Positions 52,372-63,754 of a stretch of 64,000 nucleotides of DNA are shown piece by piece. The DNA is from an uncultured Gammaproteobacteria bacterium (GTDB lineage: Bacteria > Patescibacteriota > Microgenomatia > Levybacterales > UBA12049). The stretch is taken from NCBI GenBank assembly GCA_964497535.1, contig CAZCCG010000001.1, positions 291,425 through 355,424 of the forward strand, read 5' to 3'. The notes under the pieces were generated by a model. It was not told where the DNA came from, did no database searches, and saw nothing but the letters and a program-made list of their open reading frames with translations. Within the stretch, counting starts at the first letter, position 1. Every line of letters begins with the position of its first letter. The translations under genes and the position numbers were made by a program.

Positions 52372-52803
52372 ATGCCAACATTATCACAATTAGCAAAACA
52401 CGGAAGAAAGAAAAAAATAAAGAAAATCAAAACTACCAGTTTGAGACGGCTTTATAATGCAAAAAATAGAGAATATAGTAACGTTGCTTCTCCACAAAAA
52501 AGAGGAGTAGTAACGTTAGTTAAGACAATGACTCCAAGAAAACCAAATTCTGCTCTTCGGAAAGTAGCTCGCGTAAAGCTTTCTAATCGTGTTGAAGTAA
52601 CAGCATATATCCAAGGTGTCGGGCATTCCCTTTCAGAGCATGGAATCGTCTTGGTTCGAGGTGGACGGGTAAAGGATTTGGCAGGAGTAAAATACCATAT
52701 TGTTCGAGGGAAATTTGATCTCCAAGGAGTAGAGAATAGAAAGACTTCACGAAGCAAATATGGAACGAAAAGACCGTCAACGGGAGGCAAAGCCCCCGCT
52801 TAA
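52372..52803 (+). CDS. rpsL: 30S ribosomal protein S12
   Basis: [15 protein letters not shown]...[33 protein letters not shown]... Confidence 0.95.
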
Positions 52804-52813
52804 AACGTAAAGT

Positions 52814-52841
52814 GCAAAGTGAAAAATATTTTACACTTTGC
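52814..52841 (+). promoter_or_regulatory. 8-bp stem hairpin GCAAAGTG-N12-CACTTTGC in the rpsL-rpsG intercistronic region
   Basis: Seen directly. GATTTTAGCTTTTAACTT follows. The position corresponds to the S7 autoregulatory site in the E. coli str operon, which is an inference by analogy only. Confidence 0.45.
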
Positions 52842-61133: not shown

Positions 61134-61183
61134 CTCTCAATACTTGTCAAATTATCCCCAAAAGTATATTCTAGTAGAATACT

Positions 61184-63754
61184 ATGGATAAGCTTTTCTC
61201 GCAAGATCGTCATTTATTACAGCATCCAAAACCTATCGTTTTGGCAATGCTTGGAATATTTATCCTCAGTGCTATTCTTATTTTTGCGGTATTGTTTTAT
61301 AAAACAATACCTCCAGAAAATTCTCCACTTCTTGCAGTTCCTACTCCTATTCCACAACAGTATGGGGTTAAAACTCCATCTGGAATTGTACAAGCCCCTC
61401 AGGTAAAATTCCAGCAATATATAATACCCTCTAATCAACCTGTTATACCAACCCCTGTTGTTTCATATCTATTGAAAAATGTATTTTCGGATCAAGATGT
61501 GAAATCTTTTGCCGGCAAGATTGGTCTTGAGGAATATACAACTTCGGGGCAACAGGCAACGGTATACAATACTACCGATAAAAATAAGCGGGGGATTTTA
61601 ACATTTGACAAGAATACTGGTGCATTTTTTTACCAATCGTATGGGATGTGGAAACCTCAGGGTATTATTTCCACCAAACCCCTGAGCAATGCATCGGTGG
61701 TACTTCATCAACTTGGATTAGATGATACTGGTATTATTTGTACGACAACGTACCGGCAAAAACAATTCCCAACGCTTACTTTTGTAGAATGCCATAGGGA
61801 TTGGAATACATTAGGGGAACCTCTTGTGAATCTAGGAGGAGTATTAAACCTTTCTGAAACCCAAAAAATCCAGCAACTGAAAGTTGGAACACCTGATCCT
61901 CAGGGTCCGTTAAATACATCCATCTATAATGCAAGTGATGGAATGAATGGGAAAGCACGTCCAAATGATTTCAATAGCATAACAATTGGATTTTTTCCTG
62001 AAGGAAGTGTCTATTCGATTACTTCAAACCTAAGGTGGATCACAAATAAAACTTCTATTCCCTCCAGTGACATCATATCTTTCCAGGATGCATTGTCACA
62101 GATAAAACAAAACAAAGCAACCTTTTCATTGACGCTTCCTGCCGGAACAGGAACTATAGATTTTACCAAAGTTTATCCTAACAATGTTGCACGTGGAGAT
62201 ATAGCAACTGTGACAGATATAGCACTTATTTATTTAGAAAAACCGGAAAATACCCAGCAAGATTCTTATATTCCCTTCTATCTCATTCGGGGAACCTCAC
62301 AGCTTACCTCTGGCTATACCGTAAAGTTTGTCCAGGTAGTCCCGGCGCAAAAAAGTTTACTTTCACAAAAGAATAAGCGGGTAGTTGCAGGCGTACAGAC
62401 ATCATTATTGGCAGGAAATCCCATACAGATTGGTTCTTTTACCCCTCCTCCAACTCAATCTCCAATTCCCACTCCTTTTACAAATCCCACAACAGTTCCT
62501 ACGACACCTATTGTTTCTCCCATTGGTTCTGTACCATCTCAGCAGCCGGTTTCTTCCCCTACACCCACGCCGGTAACCAGTGTTCTTCCGGCTCAGTGTA
62601 CCGGTTCTATTCCACAGGGAACAGATATCACACTTGATATACCTGGGTATGGACAAATGACGATTATTGCTACATTTGAAAGTGGGTATGGGGTTGGTAA
62701 TGGGAATACTGTTAAACATACAATATTTTTTAAAAATACGACCTCTTCTCAGATTGGGATGAATAATTTTAAAGAAGCATTTTTTAGATCTGTTCAAGAA
62801 CAATACCTGATTAGCTTAGCAAAATGGTTAAATTCGGGATATGACACATCCAAACTCAAAACAATTGATGATATGTATACTCTTTTTAATAGTATTAATA
62901 AGCCAGTATCCGGAACAGGAGAGGATTGTGAGTTGATACCCGGTTCCGCGGCTCCGGTTACCCATAGGACAGCATGTACCAGAATTGACCGTGGATATAC
63001 CTATAACTATTCAGCGGCAGAACGAATAGAGTCTGATCTGGCCACACGGGGGCTTCAAATGATCAGAGACAATAAAGTTAATGAAATTGCAAATAAAGCT
63101 GATTTATTTCCGCAAGAAGTCTTAACAGATTTTAGCTGGGTATTTTTCGAGCTGCCTGTAGCCTCTGACCAAAGGACGCTATGTTATATCTCAGGAATAT
63201 CTCCCGTTGTATTTATCTACCCTTTACACCCGATAGCAGTGACTATTACAACACAAATACCAGTTACTTACAGTGATCCTCCCATACAATCCTATACATG
63301 GGATATTACTGCATTACCGGACGGAACAATAAAAATAGGAGAAAACTATACCAGGAAAAATATCTATTATGAATATGATGGAACTCGGGTCATTTTTTCA
63401 CACCCAACTTCAGGATTTGTTATTAAAACGACAGAACTAAAAACCTTTATAACAAGAGACTTAAAACAAAGACTGGGTCTAAATGAACAAGAAGCAACAG
63501 CTCTTTTTGCTGATAGTAAAAATGCCCTGGTCGGAAGGAAAAATACTCCCTATCTTCAGTTGAGTATGGTTTCTCAAGAAGAACTATCTTCTCAGCTACC
63601 GCTTAAGATATTGCCACAACCGGACCATCTTTATAGAATGCATCTTATTATAAAACCATTGAATGAGTTTATTTCAGGATCTAGCCCCGCAGTACCATCA
63701 ATTACCCGCGATGGATTTACGGTGGTTGAAATTGGTGCACGAGTTGATCAATAG
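61184..63754 (+). CDS. Hypothetical large N-terminally anchored surface protein (P3) carrying the same C-terminal domain as P1 and P2. It sits where tuf normally follows fusA.
   Basis: N-terminal TM helix (IVLAMLGIFILSAILIFAVLF). A P/T-rich linker in the middle. The C-terminal roughly 200 aa are colinear with P1 (WDITALPDGTIKIG aligns with WNVTAYPDGQITYQ, NIYYEYD with YLYYEAE, LGLNEQE with LGLNNSEKDE). It ends GFTVVEIGARVDQ. Confidence 0.55.
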   Translation: MDKLFSQDRHLLQHPKPIVLAMLGIFILSAILIFAVLFYKTIPPENSPLLAVPTPIPQQYGVKTPSGIVQAPQVKFQQYIIPSNQPVIPTPVVSYLLKNVFSDQDVKSFAGKIGLEEYTTSGQQATVYNTTDKNKRGILTFDKNTGAFFYQSYGMWKPQGIISTKPLSNASVVLHQLGLDDTGIICTTTYRQKQFPTLTFVECHRDWNTLGEPLVNLGGVLNLSETQKIQQLKVGTPDPQGPLNTSIYNASDGMNGKARPNDFNSITIGFFPEGSVYSITSNLRWITNKTSIPSSDIISFQDALSQIKQNKATFSLTLPAGTGTIDFTKVYPNNVARGDIATVTDIALIYLEKPENTQQDSYIPFYLIRGTSQLTSGYTVKFVQVVPAQKSLLSQKNKRVVAGVQTSLLAGNPIQIGSFTPPPTQSPIPTPFTNPTTVPTTPIVSPIGSVPSQQPVSSPTPTPVTSVLPAQCTGSIPQGTDITLDIPGYGQMTIIATFESGYGVGNGNTVKHTIFFKNTTSSQIGMNNFKEAFFRSVQEQYLISLAKWLNSGYDTSKLKTIDDMYTLFNSINKPVSGTGEDCELIPGSAAPVTHRTACTRIDRGYTYNYSAAERIESDLATRGLQMIRDNKVNEIANKADLFPQEVLTDFSWVFFELPVASDQRTLCYISGISPVVFIYPLHPIAVTITTQIPVTYSDPPIQSYTWDITALPDGTIKIGENYTRKNIYYEYDGTRVIFSHPTSGFVIKTTELKTFITRDLKQRLGLNEQEATALFADSKNALVGRKNTPYLQLSMVSQEELSSQLPLKILPQPDHLYRMHLIIKPLNEFISGSSPAVPSITRDGFTVVEIGARVDQ

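Follow-up and report, generated by a model that had tools for sequence, protein, structure and literature searches.

Gaps between rpsG, fusA and tuf in a Levybacteria genome: probable lineage-wide erosion of the str operon

In Escherichia coli and Salmonella the canonical str operon consists of rpsL, rpsG, fusA and tufA in this order (PMC6735719), an organization shared by most bacteria. Cases have been described in Gammaproteobacteria and Bacilli in which genes were inserted into the rpoBC-str-S10 cluster and its parts then became fully disconnected (Brandis 2021, PMC8046335; PMC6735719, 2019). In this study we analysed the str region in a 64,000-nucleotide (nt) stretch of contig CAZCCG010000001.1 (assembly GCA_964497535.1, positions 291,425 to 355,424), referred to below as the window, from a genome of the Levybacteria (Microgenomates, candidate phyla radiation (CPR)). 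The locus resembles the canonical operon in the presence of the four genes, in their order and common strand, and in their place directly behind rpoBC and ahead of rpsJ (for rpsJ, as seen in relatives); it differs in being non-contiguous, with a gap of 5.6 kb filled by opposite-strand genes between rpsG and fusA and another of 14 kb between fusA and tuf. We consider it likely that this organization results from erosion of the str operon throughout the Levybacteria, neither from a unique insertion nor from the loss of tuf. The interruption is a clade-wide, largely ancestral condition to which one species-specific operon has been added.

Several features are common to this locus and the published insertions into the rpoBC-str-S10 cluster (PMC6735719, PMC8046335): small sets of unrelated, non-mobile genes have been inserted, the new order is not maintained and the former partners often become disconnected (compare the nine relatives described below in which rpsG is not found within 10 kb of fusA), and there is no sign of long-distance transfer. 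However, the published events are mostly located between operons (rpoBC/str, str/S10), while here both gaps are within str itself (rpsG/fusA and fusA/tuf), nearly the whole of a CPR clade is affected and conserved internal promoter-like sites accompany the gaps. Since insertions into the str cluster have already been documented in other phyla, the biological surprise is modest; in the literature we found no direct report of str-operon disruption in CPR bacteria, nor of cohesin-dockerin systems in Patescibacteria.

The gene order was established from the open reading frame (ORF) listing and from Pfam and NCBIfam scans of the window, and the coordinates of all features are collected in Table 1. 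The order rpoB-rpoC-rpsL-rpsG is common to the window and its relatives. The rpsG product was called as 157 amino acids (aa) from the ATG at 52864 in an independent assembly, and the longest ORF begins with the GTG at 52819. The product of fusA is a canonical elongation factor G (EF-G): it scores above the cut-off of TIGR00484 and the EF-G2 model stays below its own, the Pfam domains GTP_EFTU, D2, III, IV and C are all present, and the closest matches (78-83% identical) are from metagenome-assembled genomes (MAGs) labelled Levybacteria, Levyibacteriota or Patescibacteria. The contiguity expected of a str string, where gaps elsewhere are typically <200 nt, is lost at two junctions, with 5,648 nt and four minus-strand genes between rpsG and fusA and 14,042 nt and 17 genes between fusA and tuf. 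The physical interruption of the string between rpsG and fusA, and the order of the genes there, are thus as first described, and so is the lack of mobility traces: no Pfam match to an integrase or transposase was obtained among the ORFs scanned in the str region. Additionally, the 64-kb window contains no tRNA gene, and no Rfam family was detected in it at the gathering threshold.

The position of tuf was observed directly as well. The gene is absent from the window itself, and the preliminary description had considered it missing after fusA, with the gene of an 856-aa surface protein and murB in its place. The Logan contig SRR9179563_101205 (16,487 nt; L085 in our numbering) is 100% identical to positions 58950-64000 of the window and carries the exact FusA and 856-aa proteins; on this contig 14,042 nt separate the fusA stop from the start of the EF-Tu N-terminus, which is encoded on the fusA strand (L085 14188-14448); the start corresponds to window coordinate ~75,176, past the end of the window. 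The same fusA-spacer-tuf arrangement was found on a contig from a second sample. With the tuf genes of relatives this fragment shares 86-93% identity, and with E. coli EF-Tu 71%. Accordingly, rpsL, rpsG and fusA in the window and tuf on the identical independent contig lie on one strand in the canonical order, and the 856-aa and murB genes open a spacer that ends at tuf. Behind these two genes the spacer contains three small ORFs, a 188-aa gene (-), two NUDIX genes, three small minus-strand genes, TrmB, PIG-L, DUF1761 (-), a DsbD-thioredoxin fusion and a GH18-like gene, then tuf follows; the PIG-L and GH18 proteins immediately upstream of tuf are 57% and 40% identical to their counterparts in L007. 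The apparent loss of an essential gene is hereby corrected. As tuf is retained and, as shown in the following, the loosening is typical of the whole lineage, the split str operon is real but fairly ordinary.

Synteny was compared in 80 loci around FusA orthologues with flanks of 10 kb on both sides, onto which the window proteins and E. coli EF-Tu and S10 were mapped (individual loci are cited by L numbers). Loci with FusA at least 70% identical, that is, the Levybacteria and their nearest neighbours, were regarded as the clade; the remaining loci are from other Microgenomates, Parcubacteria, Acidobacteria, Firmicutes and further groups. The clade-wide distribution of the interruption was directly observed: rpsG and fusA are separated in 19 of the 21 clade loci against 3 of 53 others, and fusA and tuf in 16 of 20 against 11 of 48. 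The first junction is replaced in ten clade loci by gaps of 1.2-8.0 kb, and in the other nine there is no rpsG within 10 kb of fusA; at the second junction fourteen gaps of 0.7-7.8 kb were measured, and two loci (L018, L025) have no tuf within 10 kb. Outside the clade the gaps are mostly <200 nt. The 14-kb fusA-tuf gap of the window genome is the largest measured in the sample. The other bacteria with separated fusA and tuf (the 11 of 48 non-clade loci, mostly Patescibacteria MAGs) are similar in that the two genes are 1-5 kb or >5 kb apart and tuf is linked to rpsJ, whereas in the Levybacteria clade this separation is the rule. These counts do not agree with the originally proposed view of one insertion into a string that was intact elsewhere, and apart from three genes of the cassette the arrangement is largely a feature of the lineage.

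The contents of the gaps lead to the same conclusion. A minus-strand cyclophilin gene is located between rpsG and fusA in six relatives as well (L004, L005, L010, L018, L025 and L047; 44-79% identity), and these loci include the deepest branches of the FusA neighbour-joining tree (single gene, no support values). Downstream of fusA, murB was found in L016, L018 and L025, an M24 peptidase gene adjoins fusA in three loci, and ORF clustering of the clade loci placed PIG-L and GH18-like genes directly upstream of tuf in eight to ten of them. The other gap genes vary from genome to genome (MBL-fold, APH kinase, TrpR-like, GMP synthase (GuaA), GAPDH, PIN, M24 peptidase, phosphoesterase, alpha/beta-hydrolase and DsbD-thioredoxin proteins), and no mobility gene was seen among the scanned gap genes of the relatives. 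Even the three closest relatives (L002, L003 and L005) have a different arrangement in each case. Homologues of the remaining cassette genes, encoding an S8 subtilase, a 734-aa secreted protein and a 225-aa protein, are not present at this locus in any of the 80 related loci. Cyclophilin and murB are therefore old residents of the str gaps, and it is the subtilase/734-aa/225-aa operon alone that is specific to the window genome.

Further arrangements were recorded at these loci. In nine relatives (L002, L006-L009, L011, L013, L015 and L016) a conserved minus-strand block of six genes replaces rpsL-rpsG ~4-10 kb upstream of fusA; read from the sequence, five of the products are membrane proteins (one large and integral, four small) and the sixth is an FAD-type oxidoreductase. 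Directly 3' of fusA, L013, L016, L018 and L025 contain a conserved pair of genes (~390 and ~600 aa) which by eye resemble ATP-grasp and CoA-ligase/citrate-synthase-like subunits. In L011, a complete-chromosome MAG, the tuf match is split in two (14419-15599), the longer piece being 58% identical to E. coli EF-Tu; this may be a frameshifted or degraded gene or an assembly error.

Promoter-like sites were found upstream of rpsL, fusA and tuf, and the conservation of the motifs is itself an observation. The TTGATA-18-TACAAT site at the end of rpoC reached the joint top score of the consensus scan with 10 of 12 matches, and its equivalent, GGTATAAT, is present at the rpoC end in L004, L012 and L049. 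Within 110 nt upstream of fusA, TGNTATACT occurs in 13 relatives of the Levybacteria crown clade and its variant TGGTAGAAT in L047. Upstream of tuf the crown clade and the window genome have a conserved tagggtaTTGACG-17-TAnnAT, which in the window genome (L085 14113-14146) reads tagggtaTTGACG-17-TATATT, with a short GC hairpin and then a U-run between it and the ATG. Behind both the fusA and the tuf sites come a hairpin and a U-rich tract, and a Shine-Dalgarno sequence is lacking. The promoter-like sites are also found in loci that have kept the genes side by side (L014 for the fusA site, L017 for the tuf site), while the outgroups with a tight fusA-tuf junction (L019, L020 and L045) have AAGGAGG and no promoter-like site. 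Furthermore, co-transcription of fusA with rpsG is implausible in the window genome, because the convergent/divergent cassette intervenes.

The fusA leader is multi-branched, with an 18-bp closing stem (58830-58847 with ~58961-58979) and two or three inner hairpins. The Rfam search gave no match for it at E<=1, and nothing relevant for the other leaders at the same level. Long AT-rich hairpin leaders also precede fusA in L005, L006, L011, L012 and L016, where the sequences differ and the self-complementarity is similar (z -2.9 to -4.5). A 20-nt pattern, ACTTTNNNWTTTTAGYTTTT, found solely upstream of rpsL, rpsG and fusA, was considered as a str-specific operator and dropped as a regulon signal, because the pattern had been derived from the same sites and similar hairpins precede unrelated genes. 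Low-complexity AT-rich hairpins of this kind are located at 34928-35002, before the gene at 35003, and at 43087-43161, before the minus-strand gene ending at 43086; together with those at 52298-52361 and 52800-52856 they stand immediately before start codons that have no Shine-Dalgarno sequence, with z from -2.3 to -4.8. Such leaders are apparently widespread in this genome and not specific to str.

On this basis the following course of events can be proposed for the erosion of the operon. Internal promoters would have come first, leaving rpsL-rpsG, fusA and tuf(-rpsJ...) as three separate units, each with its own promoter-like site and a structured leader without Shine-Dalgarno sequence. Once the units were expressed independently, selection would no longer have protected the two junctions, which may have turned into ordinary, fast-evolving intergenic space where genes are gained, lost and reshuffled; the insertions would thus have been tolerable because the operon had already been split, as suggested by the separate promoter-like sites that are found even in relatives with adjacent genes. 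In the window genome the rpsG-fusA gap would then have come to hold a resident anchored cyclophilin and a species-specific operon divergent from fusA (encoding the S8 subtilase, a secreted, putatively zincin-like enzyme that ends in a dockerin-like module, and a small beta-sandwich protein with an anchor, maybe its cohesin-like partner), and the fusA-tuf gap would have grown to its present size, including murB, PIG-L and GH18 genes that also occur in the gap of relatives. A more far-reaching version, which we regard as doubtful, would make the str junctions of the Levybacteria a fast-turnover zone that arose because fusA and tuf had gained strong promoters ahead of the insertions; the ~150-nt fusA leader and the hairpins before rpsL and rpsG would be undescribed cis-regulatory RNAs coordinating the dispersed genes, and the species-specific secreted-protein operons parked there would benefit from the high transcription.

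Some points weigh against the proposed erosion. A general promoter (and terminator) scan of the region showed no enrichment (30 found, 32 expected from shuffles), and the assignment of promoters and leaders, as well as the probable activity of the sites, is deduced from consensus and motif matches. The order of events, with promoters gained before the insertions, was drawn from few genomes and from the single-gene neighbour-joining tree, and the sample represents each species by one genome and extends 10 kb to either side of fusA. Moreover, in GC content at third codon positions (GC3) the 734-aa gene (0.356) and the 225-aa gene (0.350) rank highest among the 38 genes of the window (0.295 +/- 0.030, ~+2 standard deviations). 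Since this GC3 is high and homologues of the two genes are lacking at the str locus in all relatives, the three-gene operon may have been acquired rather recently, from a donor of similar composition.

Alternatively, an island of accessory surface-protein genes could have entered a str operon that was intact until then, in one recent horizontal event, which we judge unlikely. In favour of such an event, the three-gene operon was found in 0 of 80 related loci, the 225-aa protein is an orphan, for the 734-aa protein no full-length orthologue was found and these two genes have the highest GC3 of the window. On the other hand the cyclophilin part of the cassette is shared with six relatives and the gap is interrupted almost throughout the clade. 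The GC content of the cassette (0.39-0.42, window mean 0.393) and its length-corrected codon-usage residuals (z -1.1 to +0.6, within the range of the 38 genes) are unexceptional; all in all, the composition of the three-gene operon is barely atypical. Besides the missing integrase, transposase and tRNA genes, no direct repeats bracket the cassette (short matches at chance level were seen), PADLOC and PHROGs revealed no phage or defence signature beyond generic S8 matches, and a subtilase 42% identical over 477 aa is encoded in the same window (13722-16448). A one-off insertion could therefore apply to the three-gene operon alone, not to the whole interruption; this operon is lineage- or species-specific and its age is uncertain.

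Compared with this, it is very improbable that the cassette has been kept beside the translation genes for a functional reason, for instance co-expression from a divergent control region shared with fusA or an action of the cyclophilin and the protease on translation factors. The subtilase operon and fusA do diverge from a common 240-nt region (58746-58985), and the cyclophilin has kept its position in seven genomes. Nevertheless, the cassette proteins are expected to act outside the cytoplasm, because all of them begin with N-terminal signal or anchor segments as read from their sequences, and the gap contents of the relatives are functionally unrelated to one another. The AT-rich hairpin leaders do not define a str regulon either, since they also stand before the unrelated genes at 35003 and 43086.

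Finally, the soundness of the assembly between the subtilase and fusA genes was checked. Two Logan contigs (SRR9179563 and SRR9179560) match the window exactly from 50229 or 53269 to 58873 and carry rpoC-rpsL-rpsG-cyclophilin-225aa-734aa-subtilase unbroken, and they run on for 128 nt past the start of the subtilase gene. None of the four independent Logan contigs (two samples) spans the subtilase-fusA junction: each either ends at 58873 or begins at 58950, so that 76 nt (58874-58949) are unbridged. An intergenic BLAST found no repeat behind the break, which may be due to a population variant in the fusA leader. That unrelated contigs were joined here and the interruption is not real is the least probable explanation of all, as the left contigs already contain, in one piece with the genes from rpoC through the subtilase, the fusA-type motif and the 5' arm of the leader stem, the 3' arm of which is on the right contig, the one with fusA. 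The 159-nt leader obtained by the join is stably folded (z -4.6, none of 200 shuffles being as stable), rpsG, the minus-strand cyclophilin and fusA are found on single contigs in six relatives, and for the exact 734-aa and spacer PIG-L proteins the longest contig listed has in each case 393,298 nt and an NCBI source, consistent with one record.

A gene string often treated as near-universal is thus routinely broken in one CPR lineage, and binning or annotation checks which assume adjacency of rpsG, fusA and tuf will wrongly flag genomes of the Levybacteria. In this clade the dismantling of a core operon can be studied as a natural series, with genes that are adjacent, 1-14 kb apart or fully disconnected, and the conserved promoter-like motifs and leaders are targets for transcript mapping in organisms whose regulation is largely uncharacterised.

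As for the products of the cassette, the preliminary description had regarded them as surface proteins, which was borne out insofar as all five non-translation proteins of the region, judged from their sequences, start with a hydrophobic signal or anchor segment. The stop codon of the subtilase gene overlaps the start of the 734-aa gene by 4 nt and the stop of the latter is 1 nt ahead of the 225-aa start; because of this overlap and spacing the three genes are considered a single operon, with the subtilase first and the 225-aa gene last, transcribed away from fusA. The cyclophilin gene is 285 nt apart from this operon and has its own TTGACA-17-TAATCT site.

The 734-aa protein had been called a dockerin protein: two DxDxNGxxDxxD calcium-loop repeats (DVDHNGCLDLRD and DTNHDGTVDTVD) are indeed visible at its C-terminus, while the PF00404 score of 19.6 bits is under the Pfam threshold of 22.9. 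Its residues ~40-345 (window 56100-57090) form an unannotated domain of ~300 aa, for which a confident model (pLDDT (predicted local distance difference test) 90.5) gave a zincin-like fold. The domain occurs in ~100 proteins of CPR, Chloroflexota, Myxococcota and archaea, among which the C-terminal (binding) modules vary and no full-length orthologue of the 734-aa protein was found; it has the non-canonical motif [H/E]DFGHRxE and the invariant residues H209, R210, E151, E164 and H253. The zinc-binding motif HEXXH(XXGXXH) expected of a zincin or metzincin metallopeptidase is not present. The domain is a candidate new hydrolase family.

The 225-aa protein, termed cohesin-like in the preliminary description, found only itself in a search of 5.8 billion proteins and had no sequence match in Pfam, NCBIfam or the PDB. 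Its single-sequence AF2 (AlphaFold2) model has low confidence (pLDDT 55); Foldseek returned no hit at E<=1e-3, and 11 of the top 30 weak matches were cohesins (1ohz_A, probability 0.90). The model was too weak for a fold assignment, which was dropped; a cohesin-like fold is possible, with a weak resemblance as its basis. Compared to cellulosomal and non-cellulosomal cohesin-dockerin surface display, the cassette is similar in encoding a secreted enzyme with a C-terminal, duplicated dockerin-type calcium-loop segment, next to which, after a 1-nt gap, a predicted membrane-anchored beta-sandwich protein is encoded. The differences are a dockerin score short of the Pfam threshold, a partner in which no sequence similarity to cohesins can be detected, a catalytic domain that has an unannotated zincin-like fold instead of being a carbohydrate-active enzyme, and the absence of a scaffoldin. 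A small surface-display module consisting of an anchor, a docked hydrolase and a processing protease is plausible from these sequences, and we suggest it with low confidence.

Table 1. Features of the str region in the window
Feature	Position	Strand	Remarks
rpoB	45215-48577	+	Pfam RNA_pol_Rpb1/Rpb2 domain scan
rpoC	48570-52298	+	Pfam RNA_pol_Rpb1/Rpb2; conserved left flank of the str genes
Promoter-like TTGATA-18-TACAAT, upstream of rpsL, overlapping the rpoC end	52267-52296	+	Consensus match
AT-rich hairpin leader of rpsL	52298-52361	+	-13.4 kcal/mol, z -2.3; 3' arm carries ACTTTNNNWTTTTAGYTTTT
rpsL (S12)	52372-52803	+	Pfam PF00164 Ribosom_S12_S23, 4.9e-31
AT-rich hairpin at the rpsL/rpsG junction	52800-52856	+	-16.7 kcal/mol, z -3.4; palindrome I1
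rpsG (S7)	52864-53337	+	Pfam PF00177 Ribosomal_S7, 3e-53
Cyclophilin	53373-54029	-	Membrane-anchored, cyclophilin-type peptidyl-prolyl isomerase; Pfam PF00160 Pro_isomerase, 2.7e-44
Promoter-like TTGACA-17-TAATCT, upstream of cyclophilin	54052-54080	-	Read from sequence
225-aa orphan	54315-54992	-	ORF listing; N-terminal transmembrane helix and all-beta domain
734-aa secreted protein	54994-57198	-	~300-aa N-terminal domain, two Cys-rich repeats, C-terminal dockerin-like module
S8 subtilase with prodomain	57195-58745	-	Pfam PF00082 Peptidase_S8, 5e-53; PF22148 fervidolysin-like prodomain
fusA-type extended -10 promoter-like motif TATGGTATACT	58817-58827	+	Exact match
Structured fusA leader, ~150 nt	58830-58985	+	Minimum free energy -41.7 kcal/mol, z -4.6, 0/200 shuffles
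fusA	58986-61133	+	NCBIfam TIGR00484 EF-G, 1038 bits (cut-off 659)
856-aa membrane-anchored protein	61184-63754	+	First gene of the fusA-tuf spacer; large unannotated family
murB, 5' part	63773-64000	+	Second spacer gene; complete on L001/L085 with FAD_binding_4 and MurB_C

The 856-aa protein belongs to a family of 3,344 representative clusters at E<=1e-3 (226 at E<=1e-30), with full-length matches at 30-41% identity and no relative in Pfam, NCBIfam or the PDB. Its C-terminal ~180 residues recur in two ORFs of the window, at 19328-20857 (-) and 20832-23171 (-), and the fusA-tuf gap of L015 holds two distant copies of the family.

Elsewhere in the window, the second secreted S8 subtilase (908 aa, 13722-16448, with an SdrD_B-like domain) is located between two genes of Clp/Hsp100-type AAA+ ATPases (10965-19199) and is another secreted-protein gene wedged amid housekeeping genes. 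Beside alaS, at 40026-43086 (-), a sortase gene overlaps the gene of a 780-aa protein with a weak Baseplate_J-like match, which is an unusual pairing.

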